The notes under the pieces were generated by a model. That model made no database searches. It was given only the letters and a program-made list of their open reading frames with translations, and had not been told where the DNA came from. A stretch of 32,667 nucleotides of DNA from the UHGV virus genome UHGV-0112844; one strand, 5' to 3'. Of the stretch, positions 4,564 to 32,540 are shown piece after piece; the first letter of the stretch is position 1; the number at the start of each line of letters is the position of its first letter. This DNA comes from a virus. The position numbers and the translations under genes were made by a program.

Positions 4564-4957
4564 ATCGGTGGCGTATGTCCGTGACAACCCGGACAAGCTG
4601 CACCTTTTTGTTGATAACGGTTCGCTGGTCGCAACCGGCGCCCGTTCAATGTCATGGGAATACCGCTACACCCTGAACGTGGTAATTGAAGATTTTAGCG
4701 GCAACCAGAATTTAGTGATGGCACCCGTGCTGCTCTGGTTAATGACCAATCAACCGGACGCCATCAACAACCCGGAGCTGCGCGAAAAACTTTTTACCTT
4801 TGACGTCGATATCCTGAGCAACGATCTGTGTGATCTCAGCCTCAATCTGCAGCTCACGGAGCGCGTGATTGTCAGCACAGACGGCACTGTATCGAGCGTA
4901 GAAGCGGTGCCGGAACCCGATGTACCCGACGAAATGTGGACGGTGAAACGTGGATGA
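4526..4957 (+). CDS. R: tail completion protein gpR
   Basis: The N-terminus (V/M)NKPQSLRNAL…LFVDNGS resembles P2 gpR as recalled. A GTG start is likely. Confidence 0.8.
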   Translation: MNKPQSLRNALNKSVAYVRDNPDKLHLFVDNGSLVATGARSMSWEYRYTLNVVIEDFSGNQNLVMAPVLLWLMTNQPDAINNPELREKLFTFDVDILSNDLCDLSLNLQLTERVIVSTDGTVSSVEAVPEPDVPDEMWTVKRG

Positions 4958-5400: not shown

Positions 5401-5418
5401 TGTGTCACCGATGGCACA
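5401..5418 (+). promoter_or_regulatory. Ogr/Delta-type late promoter activator box TGT-N12-ACA (PV-like)
   Basis: TGTgtcaccgatggcACA lies about 45 bp upstream of the V start. This is the dyad characteristic of P2 late promoters. Confidence 0.6.
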
Positions 5419-6399: not shown

Positions 6400-7294
6400 C
6401 CTTTCCCAGCTGCCCGCCCCGCAGATAGTGGATGTGCCGGATTTTGAAACGCTGCTAAACGAACGGAAAGCCGCGTTTGTAGCCCTTTATCCGGCAGACG
6501 AGCAGGACGCGGTAAGACGCACGCTTGAGCTGGAGTCTGAACCCGTGACCAAGCTCCTGCAGGAAAATGCGTATCGTGAAATCCTCCTGCGTCAGCGCAT
6601 TAACGAGGCGGCGCAGGCGGTCATGGTGGCTTATTCCATGGGGAGTGATCTCGATCAGCTGGCCGGTAACTGCAACGTAAAACGTCTGACGGTTATTCCT
6701 GCCGATAACGACGCGGTACCGCCGGTTGCTGCCGTGATGGAAAGTGATGAGGCTCTGCGTCAGCGTGTTCCTGCAGCTTTTGAAGGGCTGTCAGTTGCAG
6801 GCCCAACGGGAGCTTACGAGTTTCACGCTAAAAGCGCTGACGGGCGAGTGGCTGACGCCAGCGCAACCAGCCCGGCCCCGGCGGAGGTGGTGCTTACCGT
6901 GCTGAGCCGTGAGGGCGACGGAACGGCTGCGGCGGATCTGCTGGCTGTGATTGAACAGGCGCTTAACAGTGAGAACGTGCGGCCGGTTGCTGACCGTCTG
7001 ACGGTGCGCAGCGCTGAAATCATTCCGTACAGCGTGGATGCGACGATCTTTCTTTACCCGGGGCCAGAAGCTGAGCCGGTGATGGAGGCGGCAAAAGCCA
7101 GCCTGCAGAAATATATCGCCAGCCAGACGAGGCTGGGGCGTGATATTCGCCGCAGTGCTATTTATGCCGCGCTGCATGTTGAAGGTGTGCAGCGTGTTGA
7201 ACTGGCCTCGCCGCTCGCTGATGTGGTGCTGGATAAGACACAAGCCGCTTCATGTACGGAATGGAGCGTAACCAACGGGGGAACGGATGAATAG
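6386..7294 (+). CDS. J: baseplate protein gpJ
   Basis: ATG at 6386 preceded by a caggag RBS. The 302 codons equal the length of P2 gpJ. The track ORF 6302.. is an upstream in-frame extension. Confidence 0.85.
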   Translation: MAVIDLSQLPAPQIVDVPDFETLLNERKAAFVALYPADEQDAVRRTLELESEPVTKLLQENAYREILLRQRINEAAQAVMVAYSMGSDLDQLAGNCNVKRLTVIPADNDAVPPVAAVMESDEALRQRVPAAFEGLSVAGPTGAYEFHAKSADGRVADASATSPAPAEVVLTVLSREGDGTAAADLLAVIEQALNSENVRPVADRLTVRSAEIIPYSVDATIFLYPGPEAEPVMEAAKASLQKYIASQTRLGRDIRRSAIYAALHVEGVQRVELASPLADVVLDKTQAASCTEWSVTNGGTDE

Positions 7295-7892
7295 TCTGCT
7301 TCCTCCTGGTTCATCGGCGCTTGAGCGCCGACTTGCTCAGACCTGCAGCGGAATTTCCGATCTGCAGGTGCCGCTGCGGAATTTATGGAACCCGGCAACA
7401 TGCCCGGTCAAGTTTCTGCCGTATCTGGCGTGGGCCTTTTCGGTTGATCGCTGGGACGAAGGATGGGCGGAGAGCGTGAAGCGCCGTGTTGTGCAGGATG
7501 CGTTCTATATCCATCAGCACAAGGGCACAACCAGCGCGGTGCGGCGTGTGGTGGAGCCGTTCGGCTTTCTGATCCGCATCATTGAATGGTGGCAGACCGG
7601 CGAGGCGCCGGGCACGTTTCGCCTGGATATTGGGGTGCAGGACCAGGGCATAACAGAAGAAACCTATCTGGAGCTGGAGCGCCTGATTGGTGACGCCAAA
7701 CCCTGCAGTCGGCATCTGATCGGCATGTCCATAAATCTGCAGACGAGCGGGCCATATTTTGTGGGAGCTGCCACTTACACCGGCGAAGAAATCACGATTT
7801 ACCCGTATATCAACGAAACCATCATTTCCGGTGGCACTGCCTACGAGGGCGGCGCCGTCCATGTTATCGACACAATGAGAGTGAACCCATGA
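7287..7892 (+). CDS. I: baseplate protein gpI
   Basis: 201 aa at the synteny position between J and H. Confidence 0.8.
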   Translation: MNSLLPPGSSALERRLAQTCSGISDLQVPLRNLWNPATCPVKFLPYLAWAFSVDRWDEGWAESVKRRVVQDAFYIHQHKGTTSAVRRVVEPFGFLIRIIEWWQTGEAPGTFRLDIGVQDQGITEETYLELERLIGDAKPCSRHLIGMSINLQTSGPYFVGAATYTGEEITIYPYINETIISGGTAYEGGAVHVIDTMRVNP

Positions 7893-9280
7893 GCGCAAAA
7901 TTTTATACCCTGCTGACGGATATTGGCGCGGCGAAACTGGCAAGCGCTGCCGCGCTCGGTGTGCCGCTGAAAATTACCCAGATGGCGGTGGGGGATGGCG
8001 GCGGCGTGCTTCCAACTCCCAGCGCACAACAGACGAAGCTGGTTTCCGAAAAGCGGCGCGCTGACCTGAACATGCTTTACATCGATCCGCAGAACAGCAG
8101 CCAGATTATTGCTGAGCAGGTGATTCCTGAAACTGAGGGCGGTTGGTGGATTCGTGAGGTTGGGCTGTTTGATGAAACGGGCGCGCTGATCGCAGTGGGT
8201 AACTGCCCGGAGAGCTACAAGCCGCAGCTGGCAGAGGGAAGCGGCCGCACGCAGACAGTGCGCATGGTACTGATTACCAGCAGCACCGATAACATTACGC
8301 TGAAAATTGACCCGTCCGTAGTGCTGGCTACCCGAAAATATGTGGATGACAAGGTGCTGGAACTAAAGGTGTATGTAGATGAGCTGATGGCGGCGCATCT
8401 TGCAGCAGCTGATCCGCATACGCAATATGCGCCAAAAGCCAGCCCGACGTTTACCGGCACCCCAAAAGCCCCGACTGCAGCTGCAGGTAACAATACTACT
8501 CAGCTTGCCACAACTGCGTTTGTGCAGGCGGCTCTGATCGCCCTGGTGAATGGCGCCCCGGCGACACTGGACACGCTGAAAGAAATTGCTGCGGCTATCA
8601 ACAACGATCCTAATTTCAGCACCACCATTACTAACGCTCTTGCACTCAAAGCCCCACTGGCAAGCCCGGCCCTGACCGGAACACCGACGGCACCCACGGC
8701 TGCGCAGACTGTCAACAATACGCAAATTGCCACTACTGCTTTCGTAAAATCAGCTCTGGCTGCGCTTGTTGGCTCATCACCTGCTGCGCTTGATACCCTG
8801 AACGAGCTGGCGGCGGCGTTAGGAAACGATCCTAACTTTGCAACCACCATGACAAATGCGCTGGCAGGCAAGCAGCCGCTGGATAGCACGCTAACAACTT
8901 TGTCTGGAAAAACCGCAGATGGGATTATCGAATACCTTCGTTTGGGAGAAGCGGCAAAAATGGAGGCGGCCACCGCACAGATCGGTGCTAATGGATGGCT
9001 ATATATTCCCGTTACTGGCGGCAAAAAAATGCTGCTGCAGTGGGGGCTTTTAACCGGTGCGAGTAATTATTCTTTTAAATTCCCAATTGCATTTCCCGTC
9101 GGTGGTTTATGCCTGGTTGCTATGGCCCATACAACTGATTCCGCTGATGTGAGCATGGTAACTATGACTAATGGATTTATCAGGGATAAAACCAGCGCGT
9201 TTGCTTTGTGCGCCAGAACAGTGAACGGCGTGCAGCAACCTTTTGAACGTAGCGTTTACTGGTTCGCTGTTGGCTACTGA
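7889..9280 (+). CDS. H: tail fibre protein gpH (constant N-terminus + currently resident variable C-terminal cassette)
   Basis: 463 aa with a P2 gpH-like N-terminus. Two ~72-aa internal fibre repeats lie in the middle (PTFTGTPKAPTAA…/PALTGTPTAPTAA…). A crossover site lies at the LRLGEAAK codons, and the protein ends …WFAVGY. Confidence 0.9.
   Translation: MSAKFYTLLTDIGAAKLASAAALGVPLKITQMAVGDGGGVLPTPSAQQTKLVSEKRRADLNMLYIDPQNSSQIIAEQVIPETEGGWWIREVGLFDETGALIAVGNCPESYKPQLAEGSGRTQTVRMVLITSSTDNITLKIDPSVVLATRKYVDDKVLELKVYVDELMAAHLAAADPHTQYAPKASPTFTGTPKAPTAAAGNNTTQLATTAFVQAALIALVNGAPATLDTLKEIAAAINNDPNFSTTITNALALKAPLASPALTGTPTAPTAAQTVNNTQIATTAFVKSALAALVGSSPAALDTLNELAAALGNDPNFATTMTNALAGKQPLDSTLTTLSGKTADGIIEYLRLGEAAKMEAATAQIGANGWLYIPVTGGKKMLLQWGLLTGASNYSFKFPIAFPVGGLCLVAMAHTTDSADVSMVTMTNGFIRDKTSAFALCARTVNGVQQPFERSVYWFAVGY
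8925..8950 (+). other. Gin/Hin-type inversion crossover site inside gene H (left boundary of invertible region)
   Basis: The sequence CCTT CGTTTGGGAGAAGCGGCAAAA encodes LRLGEAAK. The same motif recurs four times in inverted orientation downstream, with the same core dinucleotide TT/AA. Confidence 0.7.
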
Positions 9281-9375
9281 CGTCAAAATATTGTGTTATT
9301 ACTCACACAAAGTAGCTAGATAATTTTTTTATGAAACCGCACTTACGATCTGAGTTTCAAACTAAGGAGTGCGTT

Positions 9376-9849
9376 ATGAACTATTGGTTTAGCCCTGCAA
9401 ATAATGCTTTTTATCCCGTAGCTTTAAAGGAGTCTTATGTAAATGCAGGTAGTCTCCCGAATGATTTAATCGAAGTGGAAGATAGCGTGTTTAGCGAATT
9501 TTCCGCGACGCCACCAGAAGGGAAGTTGCGTGGCATTGGAGCTGATGGGTTGCCGATCTGGATTGATATTCCCGTTGTGGAAGAAAGCCCGGAACAAATC
9601 CAGGCACGCGCCCGTGCTTTGCGGGATGAATTCATCGTCAGTACAGATCGGATGCTTGTTTCTGATTACACTATCAACAATGTTTTATTAACCTCTGAGC
9701 AGCAAGCGGAGCTGTTGGATGTAAGGCAAAAGTTTAAAGTTTGGCCTGAGAGTGAGGGATGGCCGGGCATAGCGTTGCCTGCGATACCTCAATGGATTCT
9801 CATTGAGGCAGTAAACAACGGTTACGTAGTAAAAAATTGGCCTGAGTGA
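9376..9849 (+). CDS. G: tail fibre assembly chaperone gpG (Caudo_TAP family)
   Basis: MNYWFSPANNAFYP… is the canonical tail-fibre-assembly N-terminus. The ATG at 9376 follows an aaggag RBS. The track ORF 9331.. is an upstream extension. Confidence 0.9.
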   Translation: MNYWFSPANNAFYPVALKESYVNAGSLPNDLIEVEDSVFSEFSATPPEGKLRGIGADGLPIWIDIPVVEESPEQIQARARALRDEFIVSTDRMLVSDYTINNVLLTSEQQAELLDVRQKFKVWPESEGWPGIALPAIPQWILIEAVNNGYVVKNWPE

Positions 9850-9851
9850 AA

Positions 9852-9876
9852 TAAAGCCCGTAAGGGCTTTATTTTT
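9852..9876. terminator. bidirectional rho-independent terminator
   Basis: Hairpin AAAGCCCGtaaGGGCTTT with an A-run before it and a T-run after it. It lies between convergent gpG and silent cassette A. Confidence 0.6.
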
Positions 9877-9913
9877 AATAACCCATTCCAGTCAGGTTCG
9901 CTACCGGATTAAT

Positions 9914-10283
9914 TTAAAAACCTATTGCAAACCACGTAAACATACGGGAGTTACCAGGCAGCGTATCATCAAGGAAAAACTGAGCATTAGCGCCGGTTTT
10001 CGTTGGGTAGCCGACTGAAACAGCTTGCCTTAAAGTTCTATACGATGGCACATAATCATAATTTGATGCCCTTACGCCTGCGCTTGAATATACACCGAAG
10101 CAAGCCGCCGGGAACGCGACAGGAAACGTAATATCACAATTATATGTAGTGCTTGTTACGCCTCCCTCCCATCGCCCCACTGCACTATTAACATAACACC
10201 GCCGGTTAGCGGGAATTTCGCCCAGCCGCTGTTAGACAAAACGCCGCTCGCTGCTGCGAGTTTTGCCGCTTCTCCCAAACGAA
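9914..10283 (-). pseudogene. silent alternative tail-fibre C-terminal cassette A, disrupted by a frameshift
   Basis: In frame with the crossover site it reads …LGEAAKLAAASGVLSNSGWAKFPLTGGVMLIVQWGDGREA* and stops. The homologous continuation (GGVTSTTYNCDITFPVAFP…WFAIGF*) is in another frame from about 10180 (GTG-start ORF 9914..10180). Other cassettes are co-linear (…QWG…FPIAFP…AIGY). Confidence 0.65.
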
Positions 10284-10295
10284 CGTTTTAACTAT
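10270..10295 (-). other. inverted crossover site A
   Basis: TTGCCGCTTCTCCCAAACG AA CGTTTTA is the reverse complement of the H site, with the core dinucleotide preserved. Confidence 0.7.
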
Positions 10296-10659
10296 CTCCC
10301 TATTGCTAAAAGGCGCGTACCGCCGTTATTAGCTGTTGATAAATTTCTGAGTAAAATTGACTTCTTAGCATCAGTTACAGAAGCTGCATCTATGGCAATG
10401 GATATAGGTGTCGTTCCATTGGCGGCGGCAGCGGGAGCCGCAACCACAAACATCATCGCGTTAGGGAAAGTGATCGGATAAATTACTTCAAGCGCCCCAC
10501 CTGCCGGTATTCCGTTAACCCCAGCACATTGGATAATTATCCCGTTTGGAAGTTTGCAATAACCACTAACCCCGCTAAAAGCGTTAGCGAAAAAGCTCAT
10601 ATCCGGCAGCTGGTTGGCTGCCGTCCCAACTTCCCTTTTTGCCGCTTCCCCCAAACGAA
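10292..10659 (-). CDS. silent alternative tail-fibre C-terminal cassette B (promoterless, begins at crossover site)
   Basis: Reads (LRL)[25 protein letters not shown]…YPITFPNAMMF…LLAIGR*. It is homologous to cassette D and to the gpH C-terminal architecture. Confidence 0.7.
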
Positions 10660-10671
10660 CGTTATTTGCTT
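10646..10671 (-). other. inverted crossover site B
   Basis: TTGCCGCTTCCCCCAAACG AA CGTTATT. Confidence 0.7.
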
Positions 10672-11031
10672 AATATCCTATGGCTATAAACCGGAATGAC
10701 ACGTTTGCATTTAACGCATTTAGAACGGCTCCAGCCTGAGATAACTTAACCGCTCTTGTAGTAAAAGTTGAAAGGGTTGCAGGCGCTGCAGAACCAAACC
10801 CAACGCCAGCATCCTCAGGATTATTATGCGTAACATATACTTGTGCAAACACGGATGGGAACGCTACAGGAAGCGAAGATGTGTAGACCTCTCCACTACC
10901 TGCTGTATTAACAGCACCTTGCCCCCATTGAAGAATTAAATTTTTGTTACCACTCATCGGGATTTTGGCCCATCCGTTATAGCCAATAACACCGCTAACA
11001 GCTGGCAGCGTTGCCGCTTCCCCCAAACGAA
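10670..11031 (-). CDS. silent alternative tail-fibre C-terminal cassette C
   Basis: Reads GEAATLPAVSGVIGYNGWAKIPMSGNKNLILQWG…LPVAFP…FIAIGY*. It has the same GW-K-P…QWG…FP-AFP…AIGY skeleton as the resident gpH tip. Confidence 0.7.
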
Positions 11032-11043
11032 CGTTTAATACCC
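11018..11043 (-). other. inverted crossover site C
   Basis: TTGCCGCTTCCCCCAAACG AA CGTTTAA. It abuts or overlaps the stop codon of cassette D. Confidence 0.7.
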
Positions 11044-11393
11044 TATAGCCATCCAGTAAATAGAATTGGAGGTAGGAGTAACGTAAGTAAATCTGGCCTT
11101 AGTTGTAGACGTATTGCCAATATCGAATCCAGTAAAACGCATGGATGGATCGTTTGTAGACATTAAAGCGCTGAGATGTCTGAATGCAGTAGGGAATGCA
11201 ATTGGGAAAGAAATGTCAGTGGTTCCTACTGCCCCAGATGTGCCGTTGACGTTAAGCGCCCCCCATTGAATGATCAGCCCAGTCGGTAATTTTTGATACC
11301 CATTGAAACCTAAAGAACCGGCAAAGTTGCTCATATCAGGAAGCTGGTTTGCACCATTGCCGACCCCCCGTTTAGCTGCTTCCCCCAAACGAA
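11035..11393 (-). CDS. silent alternative tail-fibre C-terminal cassette D
   Basis: Translation from the site reads [27 protein letters not shown]…ISFPIAFP…WMAIGY*. Confidence 0.7.
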
Positions 11394-11405
11394 GGTTTTT
11401 TCTTC
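11380..11405 (-). other. inverted crossover site D (right boundary of invertible region)
   Basis: CTGCTTCCCCCAAACG AA GGTTTTT. Like the H site, its outer arm diverges (ACCTT rather than AACGTT). Confidence 0.65.
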
Positions 11406-11513
11406 ACCACGGTCATGATTGTCCGTGTTGGCCATTCTCTGCAGTACAGTCAGAAATGACCATGCTCGATAAAATGGTGGCATCATTCACCACTTTTTTA
11501 TGGGCGAAAAATC

Positions 11514-12101
11514 ATGCAAATCGGTTACGTGAGGGTGTCAACAAATGACCAAAACACGGCTTTACAACGAAATGCGCTGGAGTGCGCAGGATGTGAGCTG
11601 ATATTTGAGGACAAAATGAGCGGAAAAACCTCAGATCGGCCAGGGCTAAAGAAGGTCCTGCGCACACTCTCAGAAGGTGACACGCTGGTAGTTTGGAAGC
11701 TGGACAGATTAGGCAGGAGTATGCGGCATCTTGTTACTCTGATTGAAGACCTGCGAGGGAGAGGAGTAAATTTCCGCAGCCTGACAGATAGCATTGATAC
11801 ATCAACTCCGATGGGGCGTTTCTTTTTCCATGTTATGGGTGCCCTGGCAGAAATGGAGCGAGAGCTGATCGTAGAGCGAACCCGTGCCGGGCTGGCTGTA
11901 GCGCGTGCGCAAGGGAGGATTGGTGGCCGACGGCCAAAGCTATCAGAGGATGAGTGGGCGCAGATTGGCCGGTTGCTGGCTGCCGGAGAAACGCGAAAAC
12001 GCGTTGCTCTGATTTTTGATGTGGGTATATCAACGCTGTACCGCAAATTTCCCGCGTCTGCCGTGGCGCCATTGTCTGAACGCTCAGACACTCCTGTATA
12101 A
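11514..12101 (+). CDS. serine recombinase, Gin/Hin/Cin/Pin-family DNA invertase
   Basis: MQIGYVRVSTNDQNTALQRNAL… closely matches the Gin N-terminal catalytic domain (the position of Ser-10). 195 aa with a C-terminal HTH. It lies immediately downstream of the invertible cassettes, as in Mu G/gin. Confidence 0.92.
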   Translation: MQIGYVRVSTNDQNTALQRNALECAGCELIFEDKMSGKTSDRPGLKKVLRTLSEGDTLVVWKLDRLGRSMRHLVTLIEDLRGRGVNFRSLTDSIDTSTPMGRFFFHVMGALAEMERELIVERTRAGLAVARAQGRIGGRRPKLSEDEWAQIGRLLAAGETRKRVALIFDVGISTLYRKFPASAVAPLSERSDTPV

Positions 12102-12159: not shown

Positions 12160-12912
12160 ATGCAAAAAGCAGTTATTGGCGCGGCAACTATTTACTGTGG
12201 TGACAGCCTGGAAATTTTGCGCGAACTCACTGGCGAATTTGATGCAGTGATTACTGATCCGCCTTATTCCAGCGGTGGTATGACGCGCAGTGATCGGCAG
12301 GCTAAACCCTCCGGGAAGTATGTAGGCAATAACAACTACCATGAGTTTTTCGGCGATAACAGAGACGTGCGCTCCTGGGCGTTCTGGATGACGCAGTGGA
12401 TGAGTCAGGTTAACCGCCTGGTTAAGTCAGGCGGCTATGCCATGGTTTTCACTGACTGGCGGCAGCTTCCAACGCTTACTGACGTTTTCCAGGCTGGCGG
12501 TTTTGTGTGGCGGGGGCTGATTCCGTGGGATAAAACGCTTTCAACGCGTGCGCCTCATACCGGTTATTTTCGTCATCAGTGCGAATACGTGGTTTGGGGA
12601 AGTAACGGACCATTGCCTAAAAGTCTGCATGGTGGACCCTGGCCGGGCATGGTAACTCGTCGGGTTATTCCGTCTCAAAAACTCCATATGACCGGCAAAC
12701 CGATTGAGCTTATGGAGAGCCTGGTTGCTCCCGTTCCTCCTGGCGGCCATATTCTTGATCCATTTATGGGGAGTGCATCAACTGGCGTTGCTGCGCTGAG
12801 GAAGGGATACAAATTTACCGGGATTGAAATGAGCCAGCAGTATTTTGATATCTCATGCGAACGCCTGGAAAAAGAAAACGCAGATATCCGCGCGGGCGTA
12901 TTGTGTGATTAA
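12160..12912 (+). CDS. DNA methyltransferase, beta-class N6-adenine/N4-cytosine (N6_N4_Mtase family), orphan
   Basis: Motif IV DPPY at aa 33-36 precedes motif I FMGSASTG at about aa 195. This IV-before-I order defines the beta class. No nuclease partner is adjacent. It sits in the Z/fun position between G/invertase and FI. Confidence 0.85.
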
Positions 12913-12919
12913 GGGAACA
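12902..12919 (+). promoter_or_regulatory. Ogr-type late promoter box TGT-N12-ACA (PF-like) overlapping MTase stop codon
   Basis: TGTgtgattaagggaACA lies about 75 bp upstream of FI. Confidence 0.55.
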
Positions 12920-20199: not shown

Positions 20200-20271
20200 T
20201 AATGTTCACAAAATGGATGTTCGTGTATCATTATGGGATTGCGGGTAATGACTTGGGGAGAAACGGATATG

Positions 20272-20487
20272 ATGAATTGTCCGAAATGCGGACACGCGGC
20301 ACATACTCGCAGTAGCTTTCGTGTATCAGATAATACGAAAGAGCGTTATTGCCAGTGCCAAAACATAAACTGTGGAACCACTTTTGTTACTCATGAAACC
20401 GTAGTGCGCTTTATCGTAACTCCCGGACAGGTCGATCATGTGCCTCCGCACCCTCTAAACAGTGGTCAGGGACACATGAATTTTTGA
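20272..20487 (+). CDS. ogr: Ogr/Delta-family zinc-finger late transcription activator
   Basis: MNCPKCGHAAHTRSSF…RYCQCQNINCGTTF… carries the Cys4 motif of P2 Ogr. 71 aa from the second ATG. The track ORF starts 39 nt upstream. Confidence 0.85.
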   Translation: MNCPKCGHAAHTRSSFRVSDNTKERYCQCQNINCGTTFVTHETVVRFIVTPGQVDHVPPHPLNSGQGHMNF

Positions 20488-21805: not shown

Positions 21806-22705
21806 CTATTGAGATAAAGAATTATTATCACGCATTAAGGTTTGCCACTGTTCTTCACTGAGGATTTTGAGCGGAACTCCTTTATTGTCACGATAATCAA
21901 TAGCCTGTTCTATCTTTCTTCCGAAGCTTTGAAATTTCCAATCCTTAGAGCTGAGGGCACCAATAATTAGATAGTCCAAATCTTGAGTAACACGATCAAC
22001 AATTTGGCAGCCAAGCTGTAAAAGGTCACTTTCACATTGTCTACGGGAGCCACATAGAAACTTACCAGTGAGACAGACTTTACTATCTGTAGGGTTAAAC
22101 TCATCAATTAGGTCAACAGGCGATGTTGTGGAATATCCATCCACAATACCCTCAGAAATATTTGAGCCAGTGAAAGCAGTAATTTCTTGTAATAATTTGG
22201 TGCGTTCTTCGTCTGTTATCACTCCATCACTCAGGATTGATTGAACAAGTTCGTAAAGATGTTTACCGGGATAGTTGCTTTTTAAAGCTGCATTTGTAGA
22301 TAAGAACCAGTTTAAATAGCTGATTTCTTCATCGCTCAAATGATAGTCGGAAGCAAGCCCCTTACATAGACCCTCTAGCAAATGCTTGTCAGAGTCAGCT
22401 GAGTAAAGGTCTATGTTAGGAGTATCCATCAACCCGCGTTGCATTTCATGGAGCAGGTCTTTCAATTCGTCTAATTCAGCTTTTTCAACTACACCATCCG
22501 AAAGAATTTCACTTATTTTATTTCTGATGCAGTTTACGAAATAATTTTGGGAAAGAACGTCTGATTCCATCAGCCATGTATCAAGGAAAATCATTTCTTT
22601 TTCACTTAGTTTCCCGTCACAGGTCATCCCTTCAATCAGATTGATTAAGTTAGCGATGGCTTTATCTCTATTATGTGTATAGTTGAAAGCGCTAAATTGA
22701 GTCAT
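21806..22705 (-). CDS. hypothetical moron protein: TerB-like repeat N-terminal region + C-terminal BRCT-like domain
   Basis: 299 aa. Four DG-x5-E-x3-L motifs (DGKLSEKEMIFL, DGVVEKAELDEL, DYHLSDEEISYL, DGVITDEERTKL) resemble TerB/DjlA-N folds. The C-terminus KVCLTGKF…LGCQIV…DYLIIGALSSKDWKFQSFGRKIEQA…GVPLKILSEEQW looks like a BRCT. GC is visibly lower than its neighbours. An RBS (aaggaa) lies 8 nt upstream, and the start is 11 nt downstream of the cI stop. Confidence 0.6.
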   Translation of the reverse strand: MTQFSAFNYTHNRDKAIANLINLIEGMTCDGKLSEKEMIFLDTWLMESDVLSQNYFVNCIRNKISEILSDGVVEKAELDELKDLLHEMQRGLMDTPNIDLYSADSDKHLLEGLCKGLASDYHLSDEEISYLNWFLSTNAALKSNYPGKHLYELVQSILSDGVITDEERTKLLQEITAFTGSNISEGIVDGYSTTSPVDLIDEFNPTDSKVCLTGKFLCGSRRQCESDLLQLGCQIVDRVTQDLDYLIIGALSSKDWKFQSFGRKIEQAIDYRDNKGVPLKILSEEQWQTLMRDNNSLSQ

Positions 22706-23432: not shown

Positions 23433-23669
23433 ATGAAAAGCAATTTTTCAATGCGCCCCAGCATCAACCTTGTGGTATCTGAGCCATTCATCACACTGGA
23501 TGAGTTCTGTCGCCGTACTGGCTACAAGCCTAGCTATGCCCGTCAAATGATCAGGGAAAACCGCCTGCCTATCAGGAAAAAAGCCGGAGTTAACAGCCTT
23601 ATCGAAATCAACATGTTCGCATTGACGATGGAAGCGGCCCAAGGCTGCGAAGTCGCAATGCAAGCCTGA
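23433..23669 (+). CDS. apl: Apl/Cox-like excisionase-transcriptional regulator
   Basis: 78 aa with HTH LDEFCRRTGYKPSYARQMIRENRLPIRK. It is the first gene of the rightward early operon opposite cI. Confidence 0.75.
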   Translation: MKSNFSMRPSINLVVSEPFITLDEFCRRTGYKPSYARQMIRENRLPIRKKAGVNSLIEINMFALTMEAAQGCEVAMQA

Positions 23670-23703
23670 TAGTTCCATTTTGGGATAGAAAAGGATTTAC
23701 ATC

Positions 23704-24213
23704 ATGTTTGATTATCGTGTTTCCAAACATCCGCATTTTGACGAAGCCTGCCGGGCTTTTGCGCTGCGTCACAACATGGCGAAGCTGGCAGAACGCGCGG
23801 GAATGAACGTCCAGACGCTGCGTAACAAGCTGAACCCGGAGCAACCGCATCAGCTCACGCCGTCGGAAATCTGGCTGCTTACCGATCTTACTGAGGACTC
23901 CACGCTGGTTGACGGTTTTCTGGCTCAGATTCACTGCCTGCCATGCGTACCGATGAACGAAGTGGCAAAAGAGAAGCTGCCGCATTACGTCATGAGCGCC
24001 ACTGCTGAAATCGGACGTGTTGCCGCCAGCGCCGTATCGGGTGATGTGAGAACCACCGCAGGCCGCCGCGATGTTATCAGCAGCATTAACTCTGTTACTC
24101 GTCTGATGGCACTGGCTGCCGTTTCGATGCAGGCGCGTTTACAGGCTAACCCGGCGATGGCAAGCGCGGTGGATACCGTGACGGGCCTCGGCGCTTCGTT
24201 CGGTCTAATCTGA
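23704..24213 (+). CDS. cII: CII-like lysogeny establishment regulator (Phage_CP76 family)
   Basis: 169 aa. MFDYRVSKHPHFDEACRAFALRHN…AGMNVQTLRNKLNPEQPH… closely resembles 186 CII as recalled. Confidence 0.8.
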   Translation: MFDYRVSKHPHFDEACRAFALRHNMAKLAERAGMNVQTLRNKLNPEQPHQLTPSEIWLLTDLTEDSTLVDGFLAQIHCLPCVPMNEVAKEKLPHYVMSATAEIGRVAASAVSGDVRTTAGRRDVISSINSVTRLMALAAVSMQARLQANPAMASAVDTVTGLGASFGLI

Positions 24214-25027: not shown

Positions 25028-25254
25028 TGGCTGATTCAATGGACCTCGTACAGCAGCGCGTTGAAGAAGAACGCCAGCGCCACATCCACACCGCCCGCAA
25101 TAAGGCACCGGGCGTTTCCCGTGTTCTCTGCATTGATTGCGATGCGCCGATCCCGCCAGCTCGCCGCCGCGCCATTCCGGGCGTGCAGTGCTGCGTCACT
25201 TGTCAGGAAATTGCAGAGCTGAAAGGCAAACACTACAACGGGGGTGCTGTATGA
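25027..25254 (+). CDS. TraR/DksA-family C4 zinc-finger protein
   Basis: CIDCDAPIP…(17 aa)…CCVTCQE is the C4 finger spacing of phage TraR-like proteins. Confidence 0.75.
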   Translation: MADSMDLVQQRVEEERQRHIHTARNKAPGVSRVLCIDCDAPIPPARRRAIPGVQCCVTCQEIAELKGKHYNGGAV

Positions 25255-26108
25255 GCACTATCCTGAAATGGGCGGGAAATAAAACCGCCATCATGCCGGA
25301 ACTGATTAAGCACCTTCCTGCTGGCCCGCGACTGGTTGAACCTTTCGCGGGTTCATGCGCTGTAATGATGGCGACAGACTATCCTCATTATCTTGTCGCG
25401 GATATTAATCCCGATCTTATCAATCTCTATAAAAAAATTGCCCTTGATTGTGAAGCTTTCATATCACGCGCAAAAAATATTTTTGCGATTGCGAATAGAG
25501 AAGTGGCTTATTACAACATTAGGCATGAATTTAATCATTCCTCTGAAATTACTGATTTCATGAAAGCAGTATATTTCCTTTATCTGAATCGTCATGGTTA
25601 TCGTGGGCTGTGCCGCTATAACTTGAGCGGTCATTTTAATGTCCCTTACGGTAATTATAAAAATCCGTATTTTCCTGAAAATGAGATACGCGCTTTTGCA
25701 GAAAAGGCTCAAAGCGCAACGTTTATCTGTGCCAGCTATGACGAAACACTGGCGCTGCTGCGGACGGGTGATGTTGTTTATTGTGACCCACCATACGATG
25801 GCACGTTTACCGCTTATCACACTGCCGGTTTTACGGAGGACGATCAGTATCATCTGGCGTCTATTCTTGAACGCCGGTCATCAGAAGGTCACCCGGTTAT
25901 CGTGTCCAACAGCGACACGTCCCTGACCCGTTCGCTTTATCGTAATTTTACCCGCCATCGCATCACTGCAAAGCGCAGCATGGGCGTGGCTGCCGGTGAT
26001 AGTAAGTCCGCAGCGGAAATAATCGCCGTTTCAGGAGCAACACGCTTTAACCGGGTTTATTCCACACACGGGGATGTGTGCTCGGTTATTTTAGAGGTGC
26101 GGGCGTGA
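25251..26108 (+). CDS. dam: Dam-like N6-adenine DNA methyltransferase (MethyltransfD12 family)
   Basis: KWAGNK…EPFAGSCAV…[10 protein letters not shown]…VYCDPPY motifs. The ATG at 25251 overlaps the previous stop (ATGA). The track ORF 25137.. is an in-frame upstream extension. The centre of the gene is AT-rich. Confidence 0.85.
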
Positions 26109-32435: not shown

Positions 32436-32453
32436 TTGTGTGGGAGTTCGCAC
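32436..32453. promoter_or_regulatory. Ogr-type box TGT-N12-ACA in the divergent P/O late promoter region
   Basis: TGTgtgggagttcgcACA lies between the P start (32390, minus) and the O start (32541, plus). Confidence 0.55.
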
Positions 32454-32540
32454 AAGCCCAACGCGTTGTTTACACGCGCCCATCACCGCAAACATAAGGC
32501 TCTGAACGTGTTACGAACTAACTAACCGGAGCCGGACCGA

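Follow-up and report, generated by a model that had tools for sequence, protein, structure and literature searches.

A probable Min-type multiple inversion system exchanging tail-fibre tips in a P2/186-like phage of the Enterobacter group

The virus genome UHGV-0112844, which was analysed over its full length of 32,667 nucleotides (nt) and is referred to as the window, very probably carries a DNA inversion system of the Min type in the late tail operon of a complete temperate P2/186-like phage of the Enterobacter group, where five crossover sites, a set of alternative C-terminal tips and a Gin-family invertase follow the constant part of the tail-fibre gene H. We consider this system real and probably active. 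An initial annotation of the same stretch had proposed a multi-site inversion system for the fibre tip; this reading proved essentially right and is supported as a well-documented addition to the Min-type systems, situated in a family of P2/186-like Enterobacter prophages. The complexity of the locus lies in the upper tail of what is seen among P2-like phages, and the class of mechanism is already known.

The 32.7-kb genome is complete and circularly permuted and encodes the baseplate proteins V-W-J-I, the fibre H, sheath and tube, the tape measure, gpD, an integrase, a CI repressor, gpA, portal and terminase. Pfam matches and neighbouring gene calls give the order V-W-J-I-H-G, FI-FII-E-T-U-D, ogr/B, int, CI, gpA and Q-P, which together with TGT-N12-ACA dyads places the phage in the Peduoviridae.

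Crossover sites, fibre tips and invertase

The crossover sites were located by scanning the window and 100 shuffled versions of it with the pattern CGTTTGGGRGAAGCGGCAAAA, allowing up to three mismatches. Five matches were obtained in the window, at 8939(+), 10261(-), 10637(-), 11009(-) and 11371(-), with no others, and none of the shuffled controls contained any match (0/100), so that none is expected by chance. The initial annotation had described five motifs of about 26 bp with a TT core, one in H and four in inverted orientation; the rigorous scan returns all of them at those cores, and the motifs do align. Oriented alike, they share a 12-nt left half, the core TT and the right half CGTTTGGG(A/G)GAA, which corresponds to the 26-bp, 12-2-12 dyad of Gin/Hin-type sites with the same core in all five cases. 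Site s0 lies on the plus strand and s1 to s4 on the minus strand, and the invertase gene begins 121 nt beyond the core of s4. While s0 agrees with the gix site of phage Mu at 17 of 24 half-site positions, the internal left half-sites score about 5–7 of 12 against the Hin/Gin half-site consensus. The H constant part and the sites are the following:

7889..8936 (+), constant part of H, 350 codons, ending at the Leu codon with the core
8925..8950 (+), s0, core 8937-8938, TTATCGAATACC TT CGTTTGGGAGAA, codons EYLRLGE in H
10270..10295 (-), s1, core 10282-10283, ATAGTTAAAACG TT CGTTTGGGAGAA
10646..10671 (-), s2, core 10658-10659, AAGCAAATAACG TT CGTTTGGGGGAA
11018..11043 (-), s3, core 11030-11031, GGGTATTAAACG TT CGTTTGGGGGAA
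11380..11405 (-), s4, invertase-proximal, core 11392-11393, GAAGAAAAAACC TT CGTTTGGGGGAA

Residues 1–150 of H match the Pfam family Phage_tail_fib (E 6e-64), and the constant part of the gene is about 80% identical at the nucleotide level to the Elveevirus phages Cartapus and MLG42, a similarity that stops at the crossover site or at most about 20 nt past it. At the same point (about 8940) the GC content drops from 0.57 to 0.43–0.49 and stays low until about 11500, near the start of the invertase gene, marking the exchangeable module. A near-identity search with the invertible region against complete Escherichia coli genomes gave no match, and a near search against phage records returned the constant part of H only; a relative, the Cronobacter phage JK004, surfaced in a distant search.

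Five tips, one chaperone gene and the invertase gene occupy the region downstream of s0:

8939..9280 (+), tipA, resident tip fused to H, 113 codons, Gp53-like_C at 36 bits
9376..9849 (+), tfa, tail-fibre assembly chaperone, Pfam Caudo_TAP at 29 bits, the sole chaperone gene at the locus
9914..10281 (-), c1, frameshifted, C-terminal part matching Gp53-like_C at 35 bits
10292..10657 (-), c2, silent, 121 codons from RLGE, Gp53-like_C at 46.7 bits
10670..11029 (-), c3, silent, 119 codons, Gp53-like_C at 42.3 bits
11035..11391 (-), c4, silent, 118 codons, Gp53-like_C at 67.7 bits
11514..12101 (+), serine DNA invertase of the Gin/Din family, Pfam Resolvase E 5.5e-51, HTH_7 E 2e-14

All five tips pass the cut-off of the Pfam family PF21882 (Gp53-like_C), with 35–68 bits against a threshold of 24.9. 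The homology of the minus-strand open reading frames (ORFs) to fibre tips, which the initial annotation had postulated, was thus recovered by profile search for each of the four. For c4, sequence matches to PDB entries were found with the putative tail fiber protein 4MTM (E 9e-8) and with the fibre feet of the R1/R2 pyocins (6CXB, E 1e-6; 6CL5, E 8e-6). Since the other tips share just 26–35% identity with tipA, a switch between them should change the receptor and the host range of the phage, and consequences for host range are accordingly what we would expect from tip switching.

Three of the four silent cassettes have open frames of about 120 codons that lack start signals. The claim that each inverted site forms the 5' end of such an ORF therefore stands for c2, c3 and c4 and fails for c1, which in comparison with sibling prophages has lost 1 nt from a G run, so that the LGEAAK frame ends after QWGDGREA, with the remainder of the foot encoded in a different one. 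In siblings c1 can be intact, H::c1 reaching 472 amino acids (aa) in the locus L010; those siblings whose cassettes are 100% identical share the deletion, which makes it a trait of the lineage and not a read error. The QWG…AIG skeleton that had been ascribed to all four ORFs is not general either, as c2 carries IIQCAG in place of QWG and ends with AIGR. Inverting H in silico with each site yields the in-frame fusions H::c2 (471 aa), H::c3 (469 aa) and H::c4 (468 aa), and for the lineage of the window a truncated H::c1 of 391 aa. The in-frame swap of the tip that had been predicted for any inverted site consequently applies to three of them, and the proposed four alternatives comprise three intact cassettes and a frameshifted one.

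The invertase that had been noted directly behind the cassettes is indeed of the Gin family. It shares 76% identity over 181 aa with Mu Gin, contains the motif GYVRVSTNDQ, and shows the layout of a small serine recombinase, with a Resolvase catalytic domain carrying the serine at about position 9–10 and a C-terminal helix-turn-helix domain (HTH_7). The nucleotide sequence of the first approximately 110 nt of its gene is strongly conserved with Mu gin and Cartapus, and this stretch is the likely position of a Fis-dependent enhancer. Members of the Gin/Hin family depend on Fis and on an enhancer that is located in the 5' end of the invertase gene (PMC3798978). The same dependence may be assumed here, in which case deletions between directly repeated sites would be suppressed, as established for Gin and Hin.

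Isomers in sibling prophages and the proposed mechanism

Sibling prophages were retrieved from public assemblies by an exact look-up of the invertase protein and a look-up of the c2 ORF, and the segments of the window were mapped onto their loci. The exact look-up of the invertase returned 195 blocks of the collection; the contigs that were read are chromosomes of 4.6–5.1 Mb, and the closest species representative is Enterobacter sp. RIT637 with 95% identity. With D denoting the unit tipA-tfa-c1 and a prime denoting the silent orientation, the following orders were found:

Window: D c2' c3' c4'
L091: D c4' c3' c2', cassettes 100% identical to those of the window
L088: H::c4, c2, D flipped, c4', c3', cassettes 100% identical to those of the window
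L093, a metagenome scaffold: c3-c2-c1, all flipped, cassettes 100% identical to those of the window
L005: H::cA, c3, c4, D flipped
L008: D cA' J' c3'
L010: H::c1 (D flipped), c3', c4', cA'

Siblings with the identical invertase thus differ in the order and orientation of the segments that they share, which bears out the earlier suggestion that successive inversions at several sites permute the cassettes. Across the siblings, tipA, cA, c1, c4 and a c2-like tip were observed on H, giving at least five different fusions; in L005, tipA lies on the opposite strand and adjoins the invertase, and tfa inverts in siblings as one unit with tipA and c1. Complete chromosomes that were determined in independent projects show these arrangements again.

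The comparison of assemblies, which is made between genomes including siblings of up to 100% identity, also locates the exchange at the core. Two half-sites are immobile, namely the left half TTATCGAATACC on the H side and the left half GAA[G/T]AAAAAACC on the invertase side, and the right halves swap among tipA, cA and c1–c4. The A/G polymorphism at position 9 of the right half always travels with its cassette, the ends of the left half (CC or CG) stay with the left context, and because these flanking polymorphisms never cross, the exchange is confined to the 10 bp of TT plus CGTTTGGG. The pairing of one left half with one right half is obeyed by all intact arrangements; two loci contain rearranged D segments. 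In about 18 of 74 related draft-genome loci (for example L013, L014, L018, L021, L022, L025, L029 and L033) the contig breaks within about 200 nt upstream of the invertase gene, short-read assemblies being interrupted in the invertible DNA, as would be consistent with mixed populations in the sequenced cultures.

We propose that the Gin-family invertase would recombine s0 in H with any oppositely oriented site, cutting at the common TT core. Four invertible segments would be available to it, the double-ended D, with tipA, tfa, a terminator and, on the other strand, c1, and the single cassettes c2, c3 and c4. In this model D presents right halves, that is the 5' ends of cassettes, at both of its borders, and a single cassette has its right half at the 5' end and, past the stop codon, a left half; with one fixed left half each on the H side and the invertase side, every junction would consist of a left and a right half. 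Each inversion would set a different tip in frame behind the 350-codon part of H and flip the internal sites, and because of this flipping, successive inversions would permute the segments. A legal order would begin with the singles in expressed orientation, followed by D in either direction and then by the remaining singles in silent orientation, and from the half-site pairing rule it follows that there are 3! x 4 x 2 = 48 arrangements. All 48 isomers were reached in no more than five steps when inversions between opposite sites were searched breadth-first. If the rates are symmetric, the stationary distribution is uniform, with c2, c3 and c4 on H in 25% each and tipA and c1 in 12.5% each. 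The locus would hence offer five fibre isoforms from 48 arrangements, four of them intact in this lineage, with tips that we picture as small lectin-like feet of the R-pyocin/Gp53 type. In numbers, the model predicts 48 isomers and isoforms at 25/25/25/12.5/12.5%. The locus would be a compact, sequence-defined case of a combinatorial host-range switch, in which a P2-like phage of small size has five exchangeable feet, each about 115 residues long, for a single shaft.

Some assemblies show peculiarities at the junctions. One-base cores of the form AAGCAAATAACG-T-CGTTTGGG occur in L010 (about 4750), in L012 (about 1247) and in the reverse complement of L091 (about 1684); the left half is constant in these cases, the right partner is tipA or c4, and two lineages are involved. 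Either the polishing of a heterogeneous junction introduced an error, or a base was really lost, which would lock the junction. L088 contains c4 twice (4582-4941 and 6665-7024), one copy fused to H and the other silent, and in the record NC_019932 of the Erwinia phage ENT90 (L094 plus L095) tfa and two cassettes are present twice in opposite orientations. Both duplications are probably the result of assemblies that merged two inversion isomers. Prophage assemblies would report one arbitrary, even chimeric isomer of such a locus, which makes annotated tail fibres and the host-range predictions built on them unreliable.

The chaperone gene and its putative late promoter

The single tfa gene sits inside D, between tipA and the convergent c1. 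Four of the five tips have no adjoining chaperone gene, and many arrangements have tfa in antisense orientation relative to the transcription of H. Two elements bracket the gene:

9292..9309 (+), putative Ogr/B-dependent late promoter dyad TGT-N12-ACA, TGTGTTATTACTCACACA, 84 nt before the tfa ATG
9849..9879 (no strand), symmetric hairpin with T/A runs, probable bidirectional terminator between tfa and c1

The dyad is contained in the 95-bp spacer between tipA and tfa. In P2, the four late promoters that depend on Ogr have TGT-N12-ACA as their consensus (PMC3931495). The window holds seven matches to it, no more than chance gives. Dyads of the TGTGT type are also present before V (5401-5418), before FI (12902-12919) and at the divergent P/O region (32437-32454), where PV, PF and PP/PO are expected, and may represent P2-type late promoters. 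In ENT90 and in a Mixta prophage (L079), whose Tfa proteins are about 60% identical to that of the window, a dyad lies 87 nt before tfa. In neither of these two loci can the tfa spacer be aligned with that of the window; for the Mixta spacer, an attempted alignment left the dyads out of register. With the spacers not being homologous, the presence of a dyad in each weakly suggests that the motif is conserved independently. A rough survey, the samples of which are not independent, found the dyad before 12 of 17 tfa homologues in loci with at least three sites versus 6 of 54 in loci with two or fewer. The locus L100, which has two tfa homologues behind the same dyad, was set aside as evidence for the dyad, the locus being degenerate. 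The hairpin, which was folded directly and had not been listed in the region scan for sigma-70 promoters, reaches −16.8 kcal/mol (z −4.4), and none of 200 shuffled sequences folds as well.

We put the chances at slightly better than even that tfa has an Ogr/B-dependent late promoter of its own and a bidirectional terminator behind it, in which case the gene would be transcribed irrespective of its orientation and Tfa would be made in every arrangement. More tentatively, and at somewhat less than even chances, we suggest that tfa constitutes an orientation-proof unit, in which a single Tfa is supplied from its own late promoter in all 48 orders and serves five tips of about 30% identity, presumably via their common C-terminal W/F-x-AIG-Y, the cassettes being drawn from a pool that is common to P1-like plasmid phages such as JK004 and P2-like prophages. 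If true, a lone chaperone gene with its own promoter would be of relevance to the recognition of diverse tips by fibre chaperones, and one Tfa for five tips departs from the one-tip-one-chaperone rule of Mu, P1 and the ordinary P2-like G segments.

The orientation of tfa relative to its neighbours differs between relatives. In JK004 (reverse complement of L004 plus L003, 8854-10197) the tfa homologue is co-oriented with a c1-like cassette, and in the window (8939-10281) tfa is co-oriented with tipA; from this difference we conclude that tfa, around which there is no crossover site, changed its direction with respect to the tips on either side. Apart from this locus, an Ogr/B-like zinc-finger ORF with the pattern CX2CX22CX4C was noted at 20269-20487, after gpD.

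Alternative explanations and related systems

Several observations weigh against an intact and active multiple inversion system. A simple scan of the 5' end of the invertase gene for G-N13-C pairs spaced 48 bp apart gave nothing convincing. The pseudo-cassette c1 indicates that part of the system is already decaying, the poor internal left half-sites could slow some exchanges, and the one-base cores and duplicated cassettes show that assemblies of the invertible region cannot be fully trusted. Should tfa be required but lack a genuine internal promoter, fibres would be poor in most isomers. The argument for ongoing inversion in this genome, strong as it is, draws on differences between assemblies.

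A fossil system, in which the invertase, enhancer or sites have lost their competence, the arrangement no longer changes and the site is kept only as RLGEAAK-coding sequence, would agree with the frameshift in c1, with the weak internal left half-sites, with the truncated segments of the degenerate relatives L006, L011 and L100, and with isomers being known from the comparison of assemblies instead of from within one population. We nevertheless judge it unlikely, given that the 100%-identical cassette DNA of siblings differs in arrangement alone, which implies very recent inversions, that the invertase ORF is intact and its identical protein widespread, and that three silent cassettes still have open frames. 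The likelihood is very small that the permutations were generated by RecA-dependent homologous recombination at short repeats or by assembly errors at these repeats, for which one could quote the common sequence of up to 24–45 nt with mismatches, the suspicious duplications in L088 and the ENT90 record, and the one-base cores at some junctions. All intact arrangements follow the half-site pairing of conservative inversion, and their recurrence in complete chromosomes of independent projects argues in the same direction; RecA recombination is disfavoured because the exchange interval of 10 nt, far below the need of RecA, fits a staggered cut at the core, and the repeats alone should not mislead assemblers because they are much shorter than the reads.

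Multiple inversion of H 3' ends also has to be weighed against the minus-strand cassettes being independent small genes, for instance for an accessory fibre or a decoy, that are expressed from internal ATG or TTG codons. Gene callers do report ORFs of 93–118 aa from such starts, and cassettes on the plus strand downstream of H would be co-transcribed with it. A scan for sigma-70-type promoters in the invertible region, however, returned no more sites than shuffled sequence and gives no support for cassette promoters; moreover, the frame is already open at the crossover site, siblings contain full-length fusions of H to cA, c1, c4 and the c2-like tip (gene calls of 467, 472 and 473 aa), and, with no shaft, a foot domain cannot be attached to the baseplate. 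We therefore give this explanation hardly any credence and retain the Min-type inversion system as our reading of the locus.

Among the known systems, p15B Min carries out multiple inversions at a P1-type fibre gene by means of a serine invertase (PMC6109161). The locus described here resembles it in its Din/Gin-family serine invertase, in having more than two sites with overlapping segments (five sites, four segments and five tips), and in a constant 5' part followed by alternative 3' parts of the fibre gene. The combinatorics are alike as well: p15B Min (Sandmeier, Iida, Arber 1990–92) reportedly has six sites and 240 isomers, and our counting rule yields 240 for six sites. By comparison with published descriptions of p15B, a P1-like plasmid, the differences lie in the integrating 32.7-kb P2/186-like phage, in five sites and 48 isomers, in Gp53-like feet of about 115 aa and in a single tfa with a putative P2-type late promoter. 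Mu Gin/G, P1 Cin/C, e14 Pin and P2-like G segments such as that of Cartapus share the 26-bp sites at the boundary between constant and variable fibre parts and the invertase directly downstream, and in Cartapus the right half-site that encodes xLGE is also present. In contrast to the five sites, five tips and one chaperone found here, these systems have two sites, one alternative and a chaperone for each tip (S-U / U'-S').

The R64 shufflon with its recombinase Rci and the Rin shufflon of bifidophages likewise permute cassettes by multiple inversions and in this way provide an adhesin or receptor-binding protein with a different C-terminus (PMC6109161), but they employ tyrosine recombinases and asymmetric sites, in contrast to the serine invertase and the dyad 26-bp sites of the window. 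Membership in the R64 type was rejected because the recombinase is a serine enzyme; in addition, the target is a phage fibre and not PilV, and the sites are 12-2-12 dyads and not sfx. The earlier comparison with both p15B Min and the R64 shufflon is thus to be kept for the former and dropped for the latter.

The phage FRphi of Enterobacter sp. BIDMC93 has a gin-dependent fibre 'shufflon' with three isoforms in proportions of 50/25/25%, which is locked by deletion of gin, and its authors refer to related loci that contain as many as six paralogs (PMC13418256, 2026). The Enterobacter host, the gin-type recombinase downstream of the fibre gene and the several C-terminal isoforms are shared with our locus. 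The 50/25/25% proportions are what our model would give for one double segment plus one single, an architecture that we infer for FRphi. FRphi is a 53.5-kb siphovirus with fliC-tldR and three isoforms, whereas the window represents a P2/186-like myovirus with five isoforms and without these genes. An identity of the window with FRphi was rejected on account of its P2/186-type genes and the absence of a fliC-tldR locus.

The closest relatives of the cassettes were found in JK004, a P1-like phage of 93.8 kb, in which the counterpart of c2 is about 89% identical at the nucleotide level. Its locus contains nine crossover sites, is annotated as hypothetical proteins only, and has hdf, dar-like and lydA-type genes as neighbours of the invertase. 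A 90.8-kb plasmid of Enterobacter hormaechei gave three cassette matches. The Peduoviridae phage ENT90 and the Mixta prophage resemble the window in having at least three Gp53-like cassettes, at least four xLGEAAK sites, an invertase and one type of tfa preceded by TGT-N12-ACA; they differ in belonging to another phage genus, in the right half of the site, GGTTTGGGCGAA, and in their more distant Tfa, and the locus is not analysed in the annotation of the record. Among 50,697 phage records, JK004 and the P2-like ENT90 were the only ones with at least three matches to c4. In 87 loci that encode an invertase closely related to that of the window and extend at least 4.5 kb upstream of it, surveyed with a narrow xLGE site pattern that undercounts sites, most had two or fewer xLGE sites, eight had at least three, one had four and none had five. 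The description of the system as unusually elaborate is therefore justified statistically, most relatives having two sites and no unrelated sampled locus having five, while the kind of system is known from p15B Min, FRphi, JK004 and ENT90. The small modular tips and the 26-bp sites could also serve as handy parts for engineering the specificity of phages and tailocins.

A multi-cassette locus with a different tip family was noted in Escherichia sp. MOD1-EC7003 (L047, 1-1100), where three direct xLGEGSALP sites stand at the 5' ends of tandem cassettes of about 165 aa. Its tips, with the ending NYIVRA, adjoin an invertase of 81% identity, and the locus is cut by the contig end.

Further genes of the window lie outside the inversion system. 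A gene for an N6/N4 DNA methyltransferase (12160-12912) follows the invertase and is kept in all sibling prophages, at a place that corresponds to com/mom after gin in Mu. The second DNA methyltransferase of the phage, a D12-class (Dam-like) adenine methyltransferase, is encoded at 25137-26108, upstream of gpA. On the minus strand, an ORF of 298 aa (21806-22705) between the integrase and the CI repressor matched no Pfam family and gave only sub-threshold BRCT-like matches in NCBIfam, and an ORF of 124 aa (23608-23985) beyond CI matched neither Pfam nor NCBIfam families; the positions of both ORFs are typical for moron or defence cargo in P2-like phages.

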